Assembly (NCBI RefSeq): GCF_057098645.1
Contig: NZ_CM169472.1
DNA: 64,000 nucleotides
Strand: one strand, 5' to 3'
Below, piece by piece: positions 15,432-61,510 of the stretch. The first letter of the stretch is position 1, and every line of letters begins with the position of its first letter. Below the pieces are notes generated by a model, which did not search any database, was not told the origin of the DNA, and saw only the letters and a program-made list of their open reading frames with translations. The position numbers were made by a program, and so were the translations under genes.

Positions 15432-16973
<1,542 letters not shown>

Positions 16974-17058
16974 CCTTAAAGAAGCGTTCTTTGAAGTGCT
17001 CACACAGATTGTCTGATAGAAAGTGAAAAGCAAGGCGTCTTGCGAAGCAGACTGATAC

Positions 17059-17134
17059 GTCCCCTTCGTCTAGAGGCCCAGGACACCGCCCTTTCACGGC
17101 GGTAACAGGGGTTCGAATCCCCTAGGGGACGCCA
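17059..17134 (+). tRNA. gltU: tRNA-Glu (anticodon UUC) in the 16S-23S spacer
   Basis: GTCCCCTTCGTCTAGAGG ... GGGGACGCCA, anticodon loop reads TTC. Confidence 0.95.
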
Positions 17135-17327
17135 CTTGCTGGTTTGTGAGTGAAAGTCACCTGCCTTAATATCTCAAAACTCATCTTCGGGTGATGTTTG
17201 AGATATTTGCTCTTTAAAAATCTGGATCAAGCTGAAAATTGAAACACTGAACAACGAGAGTTGTTCGTGAGTCTCTCAAATTTTCGCAACACGATGATGA
17301 ATCGCAAGAAACATCTTCGGGTTGTGA

Positions 17328-20232
<2,905 letters not shown>

Positions 20233-20324
20233 ACAACGCCGAAGCTGTTTTGGCGGATGAGAGAAGATTTTTAGCCTGATACAGATTAAATCAGAACGCA
20301 GAAGCGGTCTGATAAAACGGAATT

Positions 20325-20444
20325 TGCCTGGCGGCCGTAGCGCGGTGGTCCCACCTGACCCCATGCCGAACTCAGAAGTGAAACGCCGTAGCGCCGATGG
20401 TAGTGTGGGGTCTCCCCATGCGAGAGTAGGGAACTGCCAGGCAT
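20325..20444 (+). rRNA. rrfC: 5S ribosomal RNA
   Basis: TGCCTGGCGGCCGTAGCGCGGTGG ... GGGAACTGCCAGGCAT; 120 nt. Confidence 0.97.
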
Positions 20445-20496
20445 CAAATTAAGCAGTAAGCCGGTCATAAAACCGGTGGTTGTAAAAGAATTCGGT

Positions 20497-20573
20497 GGAG
20501 CGGTAGTTCAGTCGGTTAGAATACCTGCCTGTCACGCAGGGGGTCGCGGGTTCGAGTCCCGTCCGTTCCGCCA
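20497..20573 (+). tRNA. aspT: tRNA-Asp (anticodon GUC)
   Basis: GGAGCGGTAGTTCAGTCGG ... CCGTTCCGCCA, anticodon GTC. Confidence 0.95.
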
Positions 20574-20581
20574 CCCTAATT

Positions 20582-20657
20582 AGGGGCGTAGTTCAATTGG
20601 TAGAGCACCGGTCTCCAAAACCGGGTGTTGGGAGTTCGAGTCTCTCCGCCCCTGCCA
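20582..20657 (+). tRNA. trpT: tRNA-Trp (anticodon CCA)
   Basis: AGGGGCGTAGTTCAATTGG ... CCCCTGCCA, anticodon CCA. Confidence 0.95.
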
Positions 20658-22072: not shown

Positions 22073-23593
22073 TTATGTCAGTAGTTTTTGCAGATGGATG
22101 AGCAAACGGTCAATCGCACGATAGCTAACTGCCTCCTGCAAATGCTGACGTGTGATAATGTCAGACTGATCAATATCAGCAATGGTTCGTGCAACTTTCA
22201 ATAACCGCTGCCAGGCACGAATCGATAACCCCAGATGGATCAGTGTTCCTTCCAACCACATCGCATCTTCGCTCTCAAGTTTGCAGAATTGGCGTATTTC
22301 CGGACTATCCAGCCAGGCATTCAGTTTATTCTGCCGCTTAAATTGGCGCTCTCTGGCGGCCATTACGCGTTGTTTAACGGTGGTGCTGCTTTCTCCCGGC
22401 ACTACCGTTTTACTCAAAATGCCGGGGGGTGGTAATGGGATCTCCAGTGAGAGATCGAAGCGGTCGAGAAAGGGCCCCGAGAGCCGGTTGAGATAACGTA
22501 ATGTCTGTTCTGGCGTGCAGCGGTTATGGTTTCCCTGATAATGTCCGGTAGGGCTGGGATTCATCGCCGCGACAAGCTGGAAACGGGCTGGATAGGTTAT
22601 TTTTGCTCGTGTGCGTGAAAGATGGATCTGCCCGGATTCAATCGGCTCTCGCAAGGCATCCAGTGTACGCCGTTCAAATTCAGGTAGCTCATCAAGAAAA
22701 AGCACGCCGTTATGCGCCAGCGAAATTTCACCTGGCCCTGGAATTGCACCACCGCCCACCATCGCAGTTAACGACGCACTGTGATGCGGTGAGCGGAACG
22801 GGCGCTGCCGCCATTGTTTTTGTACTGATTCAGCATTTACCAGACTTAATATCGCAGCGCTCTCCAGTGCCTCTTCATTGCTTAAATCTGGCAAAAGACC
22901 ATTAATACGGCTGGCGAGCATTGTTTTACCTGTTCCCGGCGGCCCAATCAGTAAAAGGTTGTGCCCGCCAGCGGCGGTAATTTCCAGTCCTCGCTTTCCT
23001 TGTTCCTGACCGACAACATCACTGAGATCATGTTGTAGCGCCCGGGATACTGCATCAGTTGGTTTCGGGCGTTCGAGAGTGTGCTTACCTTCCAGAAACG
23101 CACAGACAGCTTGCAGATGATCGGCTATCAGGCATCCTTCACCGTTAATTAGCCCCACTTCATCTTCGTTATCTTTCGCGACGATAATTTTTCTGCCCGA
23201 CTTAATAGCTTCAGTTGCACTGGAGATTGCACCGGGAACGCCACGCAGAGCGCCTGTAAGCGCCAGTTCTCCGACTAATTCATATTCATCTAACTTATTG
23301 GCTGTAAGCTGTTCTGAGGCCGCCAGCAACGCAATGGCGATAGGTAAATCATATCGTCCCCCTTCTTTTGGCAGATCGGCTGGAGCCAGGTTGATGGTGA
23401 TTTTTTGGGCCGGATATTCATATCCGCTATTGATAATGGCGCTGCGCACGCGATCGCGGGCTTCTTTTACCGTTGTTTCTGGTAAGCCCACCATCGTTAA
23501 GCCGGGTAGACCTTTACTGATATGTACCTCAACAGTGATTGGGGGCGCATTTACTCCCAGGGCTGCGCGGGTATGAACAATTGACAGTGACAT
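22073..23593 (-). CDS. comM: Mg-chelatase-like AAA+ protein ComM/YifB
   Basis: Walker A GPPGTGKT; start placed at MSLSIVHT (506 aa), the ORF track starts 10 codons earlier. Confidence 0.88.
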   Translation of the reverse strand: MSLSIVHTRAALGVNAPPITVEVHISKGLPGLTMVGLPETTVKEARDRVRSAIINSGYEYPAQKITINLAPADLPKEGGRYDLPIAIALLAASEQLTANKLDEYELVGELALTGALRGVPGAISSATEAIKSGRKIIVAKDNEDEVGLINGEGCLIADHLQAVCAFLEGKHTLERPKPTDAVSRALQHDLSDVVGQEQGKRGLEITAAGGHNLLLIGPPGTGKTMLASRINGLLPDLSNEEALESAAILSLVNAESVQKQWRQRPFRSPHHSASLTAMVGGGAIPGPGEISLAHNGVLFLDELPEFERRTLDALREPIESGQIHLSRTRAKITYPARFQLVAAMNPSPTGHYQGNHNRCTPEQTLRYLNRLSGPFLDRFDLSLEIPLPPPGILSKTVVPGESSTTVKQRVMAARERQFKRQNKLNAWLDSPEIRQFCKLESEDAMWLEGTLIHLGLSIRAWQRLLKVARTIADIDQSDIITRQHLQEAVSYRAIDRLLIHLQKLLT

Positions 23594-23946
23594 AAGCCCT
23601 CCTTGAGTCACCATTATGTGCATAAGATATCGCTGCTGTAGCCCGCTAATTCGTGAATTTTAGTGGCTGATTCCTGTTTATTTGTGCAAGTGAAGTTGAG
23701 TTGTTCTGGCGGTGGAATGATGCTCGCAAAAATGCAGCGGACAAAGGATGAACTACGAGGAAGGGAACAACATTTATACTGAAATTGAATTTTTTTTCAC
23801 TCACTATTTTCTTTTTAAAAAACAACAATTTCTATTGAAATTATTAAAGCCATCATAAAAATCGGCCAAAAAATATCTTGTGCTATTCGCAAAATCTATG
23901 GTAACTCTTTAGGCATTCCTTCGAACAAGATGCAAGAAAAGACAAA

Positions 23947-24045
23947 ATGACAGCCCTTCTACGAGTGATTAGTCTGGTCGTGATTAGCGTGGTGGTGATT
24001 ATTATCCCACCGTGCGGGGCTGCACTTGGACGAGGAAAGGCTTAG
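23947..24045 (+). CDS. ilvL: ilv operon leader peptide
   Basis: 32-aa peptide MTALLRVISLVVISVVVIIIPPCGAALGRGKA, dense in Leu/Val/Ile codons. Confidence 0.95.
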   Translation: MTALLRVISLVVISVVVIIIPPCGAALGRGKA

Positions 24046-24067
24046 AGATCAAGCCTTAACGAACTAA

Positions 24068-24101
24068 GACCCCCGCACCGAAAGGTCCGGGGGTTTTTTT
24101 T
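24068..24101 (+). terminator. ilv attenuator (leader terminator)
   Basis: GC-rich hairpin (cccccgcacc-gaaa-ggtccggggg) followed by T8, directly after the ilvL stop. Confidence 0.85.
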
Positions 24102-24131
24102 GACCTTAAAAACATAACCGAGGAGCAGACA

Positions 24132-24182
24132 ATGAATAACAGCACAAAATTCTGTTTCTCAAGATTCAGGACGGGGAACTAA
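24132..24182 (+). CDS. ilvX: small protein IlvX (16 aa)
   Basis: [19 protein letters not shown] preceded by AGGAG Shine-Dalgarno, between the attenuator and ilvG. Confidence 0.6.
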
Positions 24183-24184
24183 CT

Positions 24185-25831
24185 ATGAATGGCGCACAGT
24201 GGGTGGTACATGCGTTGCGGGCACAGGGTGTGAACACCGTTTTCGGTTATCCGGGTGGCGCAATTATGCCGGTTTACGATGCATTGTATGACGGCGGCGT
24301 GGAGCACTTGCTGTGCCGACATGAGCAGGGTGCGGCAATGGCGGCTATCGGTTATGCCCGTGCTACCGGCAAAACTGGCGTATGTATCGCCACGTCTGGT
24401 CCGGGCGCAACCAACCTGATAACCGGGCTTGCGGACGCACTGTTAGATTCTATCCCTGTTGTTGCCATCACCGGTCAAGTGTCCGCACCGTTTATCGGCA
24501 CTGACGCATTTCAGGAAGTGGATGTCCTGGGATTGTCGTTAGCCTGTACTAAGCACAGCTTCCTGGTGCAGTCGCTGGAAGAGTTGCCGCGCATCATGGC
24601 TGAAGCATTCGACGTTGCCAGCTCAGGTCGTCCTGGTCCGGTTCTGGTCGATATCCCAAAAGATATCCAGTTAGCCAGCGGCGACCTGGAACCGTGGTTC
24701 ACCACCGTTGAAAACGAAGTGACTTTCCCATATGCCGAAGTTGAGCAAGCGCGCCAGATGCTGGCAAAAGCGCAAAAACCGATGCTGTACGTTGGTGGTG
24801 GCGTGGGTATGGCGCAGGCAGTTCCTGCTTTACGAGAATTTCTCGCTACCACAAAAATGCCTGCCACCTGCACGCTGAAAGGGCTGGGCGCAGTTGAAGC
24901 AGATTATCCGTACTATCTGGGCATGCTGGGAATGCATGGCACCAAAGCGGCGAACTTCGCGGTGCAGGAGTGCGACTTGCTGATCGCCGTGGGTGCACGT
25001 TTTGATGACCGGGTGACCGGCAAACTGAACACCTTCGCACCACACGCCAGTGTTATCCATATGGATATCGACCCGGCAGAAATGAACAAGCTGCGTCAGG
25101 CACATGTGGCATTACAAGGTGATTTAAATGCTCTGTTACCAGCATTACAGCAGCCGTTAAATATCAATGACTGGCAGCTACACTGCACGCAGCTGCGTGA
25201 TGAACATGCCTGGCGTTACGACCATCCCGGTGACGCTATCTACGCGCCGTTGTTGTTAAAACAACTGTCGGATCGTAAACCTGCGGATTGCGTCGTGACC
25301 ACAGATGTGGGGCAGCACCAGATGTGGGCTGCGCAGCACATCGCCCACACTCGCCCGGAAAATTTCATCACCTCCAGCGGCTTAGGTACCATGGGTTTTG
25401 GTTTACCGGCGGCGGTTGGCGCACAAGTCGCGCGACCGAACGATACCGTTGTCTGTATCTCCGGTGACGGCTCTTTCATGATGAATGTGCAAGAGCTGGG
25501 CACCGTAAAACGCAAGCAGTTACCGTTGAAAATCGTCTTACTCGATAACCAACGGTTAGGGATGGTTCGACAATGGCAGCAACTGTTTTTCCAGGAACGA
25601 TACAGCGAAACCACCCTTACCGATAACCCCGATTTCCTCAAGTTAGCCAGCGCCTTCGGCATCCCTGGCCAACACATCACCCGTAAAGACCAGGTTGAAG
25701 CGGCACTCGACACCATGCTGAACAGTAATGGGCCATACCTGCTTCATGTCTCAATCGACGAACTTGAGAACGTCTGGCCGCTGGTGCCGCCTGGTGCCAG
25801 TAATTCAGAAATGTTGGAGAAATTATCATGA
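24185..25831 (+). CDS. ilvG: acetolactate synthase II large subunit, intact reading frame
   Basis: Uninterrupted 548-aa ORF with thiamine-diphosphate enzyme motifs; K-12 carries a frameshift in this gene. Confidence 0.93.
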
Positions 25832-40493: not shown

Positions 40494-40623
40494 AGTGTGG
40501 TAGAATATCAGCTTACTATTGCTTTACGAAAGCGTATCCGGTGAAATAAAGTCAACCTTTAGTTGGTTAATGTTACACCAACAACGAAACCAACACGCCA
40601 GGCTTATTCCTGTGGAGTTATAT

Positions 40624-40953
40624 ATGAGCGATAAAATTATTCACCTGACTGACGACAGTTTTGACACGGATGTACTCAAAGCGGACGGGGCGATCCTCGT
40701 CGATTTCTGGGCAGAGTGGTGCGGTCCGTGCAAAATGATCGCCCCGATTCTGGATGAAATCGCTGACGAATATCAGGGCAAACTGACCGTTGCAAAACTG
40801 AACATCGATCAAAACCCTGGCACTGCGCCGAAATATGGCATCCGTGGTATCCCGACTCTGCTGCTGTTCAAAAACGGTGAAGTGGCGGCAACCAAAGTGG
40901 GCGCACTGTCTAAAGGTCAGTTGAAAGAGTTCCTCGACGCTAACCTGGCGTAA
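40624..40953 (+). CDS. trxA: thioredoxin 1
   Basis: Start at [13 protein letters not shown], 109 aa, active site WCGPC. Confidence 0.97.
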
Positions 40954-57237: not shown

Positions 57238-57314
<77 letters not shown>

Positions 57315-57372
57315 TTTAGTCCCGGCGCTTGAGCTGCGGTGGTAGTAATACCGCGTAACAAGATTTGTAGTG

Positions 57373-57448
57373 GTGGCTATAGCTCAGTTGGTAGAGCCCT
57401 GGATTGTGATTCCAGTTGTCGTGGGTTCGAATCCCATTAGCCACCCCA
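57373..57448 (+). tRNA. hisR: tRNA-His (anticodon GUG)
   Basis: GGTGGCTATAGCTCAGTTGG ... TAGCCACCCCA, anticodon GTG. Confidence 0.95.
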
Positions 57449-57469
57449 TTATTAGAAGTTGTGACAATG

Positions 57470-57555
57470 CGAAGGTGGCGGAATTGGTAGACGCGCTAGC
57501 TTCAGGTGTTAGTGTCCTTACGGACGTGGGGGTTCAAGTCCCCCCCCTCGCACCA
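57470..57555 (+). tRNA. leuT: tRNA-Leu (anticodon CAG)
   Basis: GCGAAGGTGGCGGAATTGGTAGACGC ... CTCGCACCA with long variable arm, anticodon CAG. Confidence 0.93.
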
Positions 57556-57596
57556 CGACTTTAAAGAATTGAACTAAAAATTCAAAAAGCAGTATT

Positions 57597-57674
57597 TCGG
57601 CGAGTAGCGCAGCTTGGTAGCGCAACTGGTTTGGGACCAGTGGGTCGGAGGTTCGAATCCTCTCTCGCCGACCA
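57597..57674 (+). tRNA. proM: tRNA-Pro (anticodon UGG)
   Basis: CGGCGAGTAGCGCAGCTTGG ... CTCGCCGACCA, anticodon TGG. Confidence 0.93.
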
Positions 57675-61302: not shown

Positions 61303-61510
61303 GTAGATGCTCATTCCATCTCTTATGTTCGCCTTAGTGCCTCATAAACTCCGGAATGACGCAGAGCCGTTTACGGTGCTTATCGTCCACTGACAGATGT
61401 CGCTTATGCCTCATCAGACACCATGGACACAACGTTGAGTGAAGCACCCACTTGTTGTCATACAGACCTGTTTTAACGCCTGCTCCGTAATAAGAGCAGG
61501 CGTTTTTTTA
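61303..61510 (+). ncRNA. glmZ: small regulatory RNA GlmZ
   Basis: Sequence from GTAGATGCTCATTCCATCTC to the terminator hairpin GCCTGCTCCGTAATAAGAGCAGGCGTTTTTTT matches GlmZ as I recall it; no ORF; a -10-like CATAAT lies just upstream. Confidence 0.9.

Follow-up and report, generated by a model that had tools for sequence, protein, structure and literature searches.

ilvL, the attenuator and ilvX ahead of ilvG in Escherichia coli: a textbook control region whose 16-codon ilvX frame may act as a positional uORF

What could a 16-codon open reading frame be doing between a transcription attenuator and the first enzyme gene of a biosynthetic operon? The question is raised by a region of the window (the whole 64,000-nt stretch of DNA that was analysed, read on one strand) in which a leader peptide gene, an intrinsic terminator and the small frame ilvX precede ilvG. 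Our account as a whole is that the region is the ilvLXGMEDA leader, that it works by attenuation and that ilvX has a role in cis, and we would give it a probability of about 0.9. Its parts are not equally firm, and each is worded below according to its own strength.

The identity of the region is nearly certain: it is the leader through which the ilvLXGMEDA operon of E. coli is regulated, by attenuation. Chromosomes of E. coli O145:H28 matched a 701-nt query at 99.9% identity, and the stretch was found in 5,425 of the 5,426 complete E. coli genomes. The RefSeq features at the matching positions of the best-hit genome and of K-12 are “ilv operon leader peptide,” “peptide IlvX,” and “acetolactate synthase 2 catalytic subunit,” the K-12 MG1655 counterparts being ilvL (b3766), ilvX (b4669) and ilvG (b4488). 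Between 23896 and 24200 the single difference from K-12 is one synonymous base in ilvL codon 9; the leader through ilvX is otherwise the same, and the 51 nt of ilvX are identical to the annotated K-12 ilvX, at the same position. The IlvL peptide matched the Pfam family PF08046 (IlvGEDA_leader) over its full length, 1-32, with 61.5 bits (cut-off of 25, E = 4.2e-17). The region was also matched by RF02744, a curated Rfam 5' UTR family covering the ilv leader in soft-rot enterobacteria. The names ilv leader, ilvX and ilvG, which the original prediction had assigned, agree with the RefSeq annotation at the same places and with the PF08046 match. The leader, the attenuator and ilvX are already known and annotated and form a textbook control region; the annotation of ilvX dates from 2008-2009.

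Table 1. Positions in the window of the features of the ilv leader region
Feature	Position	Strand	Details and evidence
RF02744 (Rev39_5p_UTR) match	23876..24165	+	158.8 bits vs gathering score 88, E = 4.8e-48, model 1-300 of 300
ilvL leader peptide gene	23947..24045	+	ATG to TAG, 32 codons; ORF list and translation, PF08046, RefSeq ilvL
Regulatory codon run, ilvL codons 4-20 (LLRVISLVVISVVVIII)	23956..24006	+	Leu, Val or Ile in 14/17
Protector hairpin (segments 1:2), inside ilvL, GCGUGGUGG x CCACCGUGC	23987..24015	+	-15.5 kcal/mol, z = -4.05
Antiterminator (segments 2:3), GUGCGGGG (24012-24019) x CCCCGCAC (24071-24078)	24012..24078	+	8 perfect pairs, duplex -17.7 kcal/mol
Small 7-bp hairpin across the ilvL stop codon	24037..24057	+	-7.5 kcal/mol, z = -1.94
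Intrinsic terminator (attenuator)	hairpin 24066-24097, U8 at 24094-24101	+	GAAA loop, one C-C mismatch
ilvX Shine-Dalgarno GAGGAG	24120..24125	+	6 nt before ilvX ATG; anti-SD duplex -8.1 kcal/mol (row identical to window)
Hairpin at the ilvX start, Shine-Dalgarno and spacer (24120-24129) x ilvX codons 7-10 (24151-24160)	24120..24160	+	AUG in loop; -11.4 kcal/mol, z = -3.27
ilvX	24132..24182	+	16 codons and TAA (24180-24182); translation, annotated ilvX / b4669
Conserved nucleotide motif CAGCAYAAAATYCTGY, ilvX codons 3-8	24140..24155	+	Alignments, per-site entropy
ilvG Shine-Dalgarno GGGGA, inside ilvX codons 14-16	24173..24177	+	Anti-SD duplex -7.0 kcal/mol
ilvG, intact, acetolactate synthase II large subunit	24185..25831	+	548 codons; ORF list, Pfam TPP_enzyme N, M and C domains, RefSeq

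The leader peptide reads MTALLRVISLVVISVVVIIIPPCGAALGRGKA, with Ile, Leu or Val at 15 of its 32 residues. A 32-codon leader rich in Leu, Val and Ile codons had been predicted from the DNA, and both its composition and its coordinates proved exact; a review likewise describes the ilv leader as a peptide of 32 residues of which 15 are branched-chain (PMC6123439). The density of the regulatory run was unique among the 70,508 stop-free 17-residue stretches found in the six frames of the window.

The attenuator itself was readily recognized by folding. The terminator hairpin folded at -21.6 kcal/mol (z = -4.31), with none of 200 shuffled sequences folding as well, and exactly eight T continue directly from it. 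The original prediction had a GC-rich hairpin and T8 following the leader at once; the hairpin and the T8 were there, whereas “at once” did not hold, the terminator foot lying 20 nt from the ilvL stop codon with the small 7-bp hairpin spanning that stop. A simple terminator scan called no + strand terminator at the attenuator because the stem carries one C-C mismatch, which is a limit of the scan and not counter-evidence. The protector hairpin was seen in the minimum-energy fold of the leader and was matched by 0 of 200 shuffles. The antiterminator competes with both of these structures for the same nucleotides, having 24012-24015 in common with the protector and 24071-24078 in common with the 5' arm of the terminator. 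Thus, the fold check that had been proposed for the leader recovered protector, antiterminator and terminator helices that are mutually exclusive, so that the alternative structures on which the proposed attenuator depended do exist; the attenuation arrangement is borne out by this folding and by the published experiments on K-12.

How these helices would be switched could not be read from equilibrium folding. The minimum-energy fold of the full leader contained both the protector and the terminator, the probability of the terminator at equilibrium was about 0.97, and the same value of about 0.97 was obtained at every stall position when a ribosome footprint was masked. Since the terminator always beats the antiterminator at equilibrium, as a kinetic switch would lead one to expect, the switch depends on a kinetic, co-transcriptional argument, which we have modelled crudely. 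The nascent RNA was folded as it stands before the 3' arm of the terminator exists, using only the RNA ahead of the stalled ribosome, with the leading edge of the ribosome set at 8, 10 or 13 nt; allowing the RNA behind the ribosome to pair with that ahead gave erratic results. Under these conditions the antiterminator had a probability of 0.98-1.0 as long as the A site was no farther than codon 18, and this probability went to 0 once the A site was beyond codon 19-21, for any leading edge from 8 to 13 nt. The modelled switch point is thus the end of the Ile/Leu/Val run, as the classical attenuation model demands. Two outcomes of the nascent-RNA model did not follow expectation. In the run without a ribosome, the antiterminator and a shortened protector still formed and termination without translation was not reproduced; with the longest footprint, termination was predicted for stalls at Pro21-22, as opposed to the read-through seen in experiment (PMC8384417).

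Published data on K-12 show the attenuator at work. RNA-seq density falls 45-fold across it, and ribosome stalling in ilvL raises ilvG 3.1-fold, an effect abolished by mutating the stall codons (PMC8384417). In laboratory evolution, adaptive mutations arose repeatedly at ilvL +47/+48 (PMC4166923), which correspond here to 24092/24093, on the 3' side of the terminator stem. The mechanism of attenuation is established for K-12, and the region described here contains its parts. By that mechanism, a ribosome would translate the 32-codon leader as transcription enters ilvL. With charged tRNA for Leu, Val or Ile in short supply, it would stall within codons 4-20, unzipping the protector or preventing its formation and freeing GUGCGGGG for CCCCGCAC; the terminator would then lose its 5' arm to the antiterminator, and RNA polymerase would continue into ilvX-ilvG. 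With Leu, Val and Ile all plentiful, the ribosome would move past codon 20 and cover 24012-24019, the terminator with its U8 would form and transcription would stop.

The read-through transcript leads to ilvX. A 16-codon ORF with its own Shine-Dalgarno and with a stop 2 bp from the ilvG ATG had been described at this place, and all of its coordinates were exact; the two intervening nucleotides are CT. From the ilvL stop to the ilvG start there is a gap of 139 nt. The mean strengths of the two Shine-Dalgarno sequences are similar (-7.4 kcal/mol for ilvX and -7.0 kcal/mol for ilvG), and that of ilvG is predicted to be 0.65 unpaired in E. coli. The ilvX gene is cited as a small peptide gene whose product was reported to be detectable, according to the passage of PMC9299463 that refers to Hemm 2008 and 2010, and it has been used as a translational GFP fusion (PMC9299463). 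Our literature search found no functional test of the enteric ilvX and no statement of its coupling to ilvG; among the papers that mention it, ilvX never occurred in a title or abstract, and several of them used the name for an unrelated gene of mycobacteria.

We have relied on the comparison of relatives. Loci came from three sources: reference genomes, searched for IlvG homology; public assemblies, searched with the exact IlvL sequence; and metagenomes, searched for an exact match to the invariant leader core with a variant base by which E. coli-like sequences were left out. This gave 42 distinct ilvX-ilvG junction sequences. The ORF is present in 40 of them, among which are E. albertii, Citrobacter, Superficieibacter, two Enterobacter, one Klebsiella, Acerihabitans, a probable Salmonella type and 28 metagenomic enteric-like loci. 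The latter are the distinct sequences from 34 matched contigs, chosen by exact leader-core match and not phylogenetically independent, and the comparative counts given below ignore the relatedness of the sequences.

The geometry of ilvX was strongly conserved in this set. A Shine-Dalgarno and a start codon were present in 40/40 loci, the start being ATG except for GTG in two; GTG is the start in the probable Salmonella type. Counted from the ilvX start, the ilvG ATG lay 53 nt away in 39 of the 40 loci and 52 nt away in the remaining one, and between the T-run and the start of ilvX there were 29 to 48 nt. The ilvX stop lay 2 nt from the ilvG ATG, 1 nt from it (one locus), or in a 4-nt ATGA overlap with it. 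Among the 39 ungapped sequences, the ilvX frame contained no stop codon against 6.8 expected from column composition, and the other two frames had 61 against 61.9 and 42 against 48.3; no indels were found over 45 nt of ilvX. Where the stop has been lost (L102 and L106), the frame extends by two codons and ends at a TGA overlapping the ilvG ATG.

The encoded peptide behaved differently, with 36 distinct sequences among the 39 aligned. The mean entropy at the three codon positions was 0.72, 0.92 and 0.95 bits, so that third positions are not relaxed, and codons 9-13 were near saturation at all three positions. Cys8 was invariant in 39/39 relatives, with TGT and TGC both in use; Ser/Arg4, Ile/Thr5 and Lys6 were fairly conserved; and Gly15, whose codon is the ilvG Shine-Dalgarno, was kept in 37 of the 39. 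Within the CAGCAYAAAATYCTGY motif, the third positions of codons 5-7 were more conserved than the second. Photorhabdus has kept this motif and has no ilvX ORF. In composition the motif is CA-rich, like GcvB targets.

Farther from E. coli, the arrangement changes. The terminator of Aeromonas and Marinobacter lies only 24-30 nt from the ilvG ATG, so that a uORF would not fit there, and none is present; in some further relatives, too, the space is lacking. Three Vibrio species have unrelated ORFs of 15-20 codons with a Shine-Dalgarno and with a stop overlapping the ilvG ATG (ATGA), and the ORFs found before ilvG in Pasteurellaceae had no Shine-Dalgarno. The distribution that we claim for uORFs before ilvG is Enterobacterales and Vibrio.

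The ilvX start is also structured. The hairpin that encloses it (10 bp) was equalled by only one of 200 shuffles, and the ilvX Shine-Dalgarno was predicted to be 2% unpaired in E. coli. An equivalent helix is present at the ilvX start in the Rfam RF02744 consensus, and in the relatives 77% of the cells of the helix were paired, against 47-54% in slid controls. No covariation was found in this helix among the relatives, and conservation was confined to the C-A-G / C-U-G pairs at its centre. The ilvX initiation region folded better than its own shuffles in 39/39 relatives, with a mean z of -1.98 and 17 of the 39 below -2.

Several other elements around ilvX were considered as candidate regulators. 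In a candidate helix between 24150-24155 and 24171-24176, the latter at the ilvG Shine-Dalgarno, 97% of the cells were paired where slid controls gave 56-70%, and one compensatory pair alternated between C-G, U-A and U-G. The helix is weak, and in E. coli, where the ilvG Shine-Dalgarno is mostly unpaired, it has no energetic advantage (z about 0); we have kept sequestration of the ilvG Shine-Dalgarno by 24150-24155 as a lead only. Lrp is reported to bind in the ilv leader, a finding ascribed to Rhee et al. in 1996. The Lrp consensus YAGHAWATTWTDCTR matches 24140-24154 at 13 of 15 positions on the minus strand, but such matches occur in the window at chance frequency (78 vs. 69.5 +/- 9.5), and the site was rejected. 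Chimeras of GcvB and ilvX are enriched in RNA-RNA interaction data, and GcvB had no regulatory effect on the ilvX fusion (PMC9299463). We have rejected pairing with GcvB, as the energy of the duplex was no better than with shuffled targets and the published reporters showed no regulation of ilvX.

Which kind of selection has kept ilvX open can now be weighed. That the 16-codon ORF and the Ile/Leu/Val-rich leader-like ORF are both accidents of sequence has practically no chance of being right: short ORFs are indeed common, dozens of 20-60 codons occurring in the window, but the Ile/Leu/Val run is unique there, the leader matches a Pfam family, both ORFs are annotated, and their conservation across genera has already refuted the idea. 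IlvX might instead be a micropeptide acting in trans, for instance on acetolactate synthase II or via its cysteine, with the adjacency to ilvG meaning co-expression only. Such a peptide would account for the invariance of Cys8 under two synonymous codons, for the fairly conserved residues 4 to 6 and for the detection of IlvX reported in the cited passage (Hemm 2008 and 2010, via PMC9299463). It would be hard to reconcile with 36 distinct peptides among 39 and with the near saturation of codons 9-13 throughout; moreover, the excess of third- over second-position conservation in codons 5-7 is the opposite of what protein selection leaves, the same nucleotide motif persists in Photorhabdus where there is no ORF, and the alternation of TGT and TGC tracks a possible RNA pairing partner. 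We regard a function in trans as unlikely.

On another reading, the ORF would be incidental and a non-coding RNA or DNA element would be what is conserved, be it the ilvX-start hairpin, a hairpin at the ilvG Shine-Dalgarno, or a site for Lrp or for GcvB/Hfq. This is compatible with the conservation of CAGCAYAAAATYCTGY as nucleotides, Photorhabdus included, and with the stability of the ilvX-start hairpin, its place in the Rfam consensus and a region structured in 39/39 relatives. The 97% pairing and the compensatory pair of the helix at the ilvG Shine-Dalgarno, the enriched GcvB-ilvX chimeras (PMC9299463) and the 13/15 Lrp match on the minus strand could each be counted in the same direction. 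However, three of these candidates are weakened by the results already given, namely the z of about 0 for the ilvG Shine-Dalgarno helix in E. coli, the chance frequency of Lrp-consensus matches, and a GcvB duplex no better than shuffles together with an unregulated ilvX fusion. An element of this kind would also leave the open frame unexplained, with its 0 stops against 6.8 expected, its 45 nt free of indels, and an ATG or GTG with a Shine-Dalgarno in every case. We consider this reading still less probable than a peptide acting in trans.

An open frame and a fixed spacing, yet a variable peptide with unrelaxed third positions, point to a cis-acting uORF. To judge from the comparative data, ilvX would be maintained as a translated frame adjoining ilvG and not for its peptide, a view that we hold tentatively, at slightly less than even odds. 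On the broader matter of whether ilvX acts in cis at all, our judgement from the sequences is evenly balanced. Several points stand against a role in cis: the Shine-Dalgarno that ilvG has itself, the invariance of Cys8 with both synonymous codons, which could mean selection on the peptide, the absence of the ilvX ORF from Photorhabdus, and the choice of the metagenomic loci by exact leader-core match, with their lack of phylogenetic independence.

On the read-through transcript, ilvX would be translated from its own Shine-Dalgarno, and translation would end 2 nt before the ilvG AUG. Acting in cis, the frame could hand ribosomes over to ilvG, by coupling or re-initiation; alternatively, a ribosome on ilvX could cover the transcript in the 139-nt gap between ilvL and ilvG, which would otherwise be naked. 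The strongly conserved geometry would allow translational coupling of ilvX and ilvG, which makes such coupling plausible. The Shine-Dalgarno of ilvG is of similar strength to that of ilvX and is mostly unpaired, so that ilvG need not depend on ilvX. Coupling by unmasking of the ilvG start is not supported by the predicted folds, and coupling by hand-over of ribosomes, or a protection of the untranslated gap, is possible. Taken together, ilvX may be a positional uORF, and no ordinary peptide gene, that was inserted between the attenuator and ilvG in enteric bacteria; selection would keep it translated over exactly 16 codons and ending at the ilvG start, with a drifting peptide and a start held in a hairpin, and it would load a ribosome on read-through transcripts for efficient translation of ilvG and for shielding from Rho; we would put this proposal, too, a little short of an even chance. 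Should it be correct, the ilvX uORF would place a second checkpoint, at translation, behind the one at transcription, and the Vibrio ATGA uORFs would represent the same device, either arisen independently or diverged. One of the best-studied bacterial operons would then offer a neat case of a uORF that is conserved because it is translated. The part of this work that goes beyond annotation is the comparative signature only, that is, a fixed-length abutting open frame with an unconstrained peptide and a structured start.

The closest known system is the leader-attenuator of the ilvGMEDA (ilvLXGMEDA) operon of E. coli K-12, with which the region shares the 32-residue leader and its 15 branched-chain residues, the terminator and the location ahead of ilvG. 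The K-12 leader-attenuator is said to have been described in 1980 by Lawther and Hatfield and by Nargang et al. The region differs from K-12 in that ilvG is intact here, whereas K-12 lacks the 2 bp at window positions 25161-25162 and has a pseudogene, and in four substitutions clustered at 23882-23895, upstream of the leader. The ilvX frame resembles the ribosome-delivering uORFs (reviewed in PMC12548453; the iraD uORF is cited in 10.1101/511675) in having its stop near the downstream AUG, a Shine-Dalgarno inside the uORF and a poorly conserved peptide. It differs from them in that ilvG is itself equipped with a competent Shine-Dalgarno and in that a dependence of ilvG translation on ilvX is putative. 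A further parallel lies in the same operon, where ilvD and ilvA are likewise in adjacent frames. The translational coupling of ilvD and ilvA joins two enzyme genes and was tested by experiment, as Harms et al. 1988 is cited in PMC12548453, whereas a coupling of the ilvX-ilvG pair is conjectural. With the trp, his, leu, thr and ilvBN attenuators, finally, the ilv leader shares a leader ORF that is short and contains codons of the end-product amino acids, mutually exclusive antiterminator and terminator helices, and a terminator with a U-run before the first structural gene. It stands apart from them as a multivalent leader, responding to three amino acids over a 17-codon run, and in the extra 16-codon ORF that lies between the attenuator and the first enzyme gene.

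The ilvG gene is intact in the window, with an open reading frame of 548 codons (24185-25831). When this sequence was compared with that of K-12 MG1655, two bases (AT, window positions 25161-25162) located inside ilvG were found to be missing from the latter, and the resulting frameshift makes the K-12 MG1655 ilvG a pseudogene. Besides this deletion, the comparison revealed 33 more mismatches across ilvG.

We have also compared the region upstream of the ilv leader with K-12. The 14 bp lying just 5' of the leader (23882-23895) carried a cluster of four substitutions (TTGTGCTATTCGCAAAATC in the window vs. TTGTACTATTTACAAAACC in K-12), with a single base difference in the 300 bp 3' of the cluster. 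These substitutions fall within the putative ilv promoter region. Lrp has reportedly been found to bind within the ilv leader. On the minus strand, 13 of the 15 positions in 24140-24154 agreed with YAGHAWATTWTDCTR, the consensus for Lrp binding. In the window, matches to this consensus were as frequent as in shuffled sequence, and therefore the stretch is regarded only as a lead.

The additional features located in this part of the analysis are listed in the table below. For yifB, the longest ORF comprised 516 codons (ATG at 23623), whereas the RefSeq annotation of the best-hit genome gives 506. Thus, the mechanically assigned start is probably 10 codons too far upstream.

Features in the window and short ORFs at the Vibrio loci (L-numbers; each locus has its own coordinates)
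Feature	Coordinates	Remarks
rRNA operon, complete	15432-20657	16S, tRNA-Glu(UUC), 23S, 5S, tRNA-Asp, tRNA-Trp
StyR-44	17212-17320	Rfam match; spacer 5' of 23S gene, same rRNA operon
yifB (Mg chelatase-like ATPase)	22073-23623	minus strand; longest ORF
TrxA 5' UTR thermometer	40554-40653	Rfam match, 78.8 bits (gathering score 58)
tRNA cluster, four genes	57238-57674	Arg(CCG), His(GUG), Leu(CAG), Pro(UGG)
GlmZ small RNA	61303-61509	full-length match, 218 bits
Vibrio short ORF	L015 1157-1204	MCSNKANTT...
Vibrio short ORF	L016 1142-1204	MCNRTNSD...
Vibrio short ORF	L018 1151-1204	MTCNTTQD...

Regarding ilvX, the 16-codon ORF preceding ilvG, both Photorhabdus loci (L010 and L012) kept the motif CAGAACAAAATTTTGT ~60 nt 5' of ilvG, and despite this neither contained the ilvX start codon or open frame. 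In three Vibrio species, short ORFs of 15-20 codons with a Shine-Dalgarno sequence were found 5' of ilvG, their stop codon overlapping the ilvG ATG (ATGA). These ORFs showed no sequence similarity to ilvX, of which they are a possible analogue.
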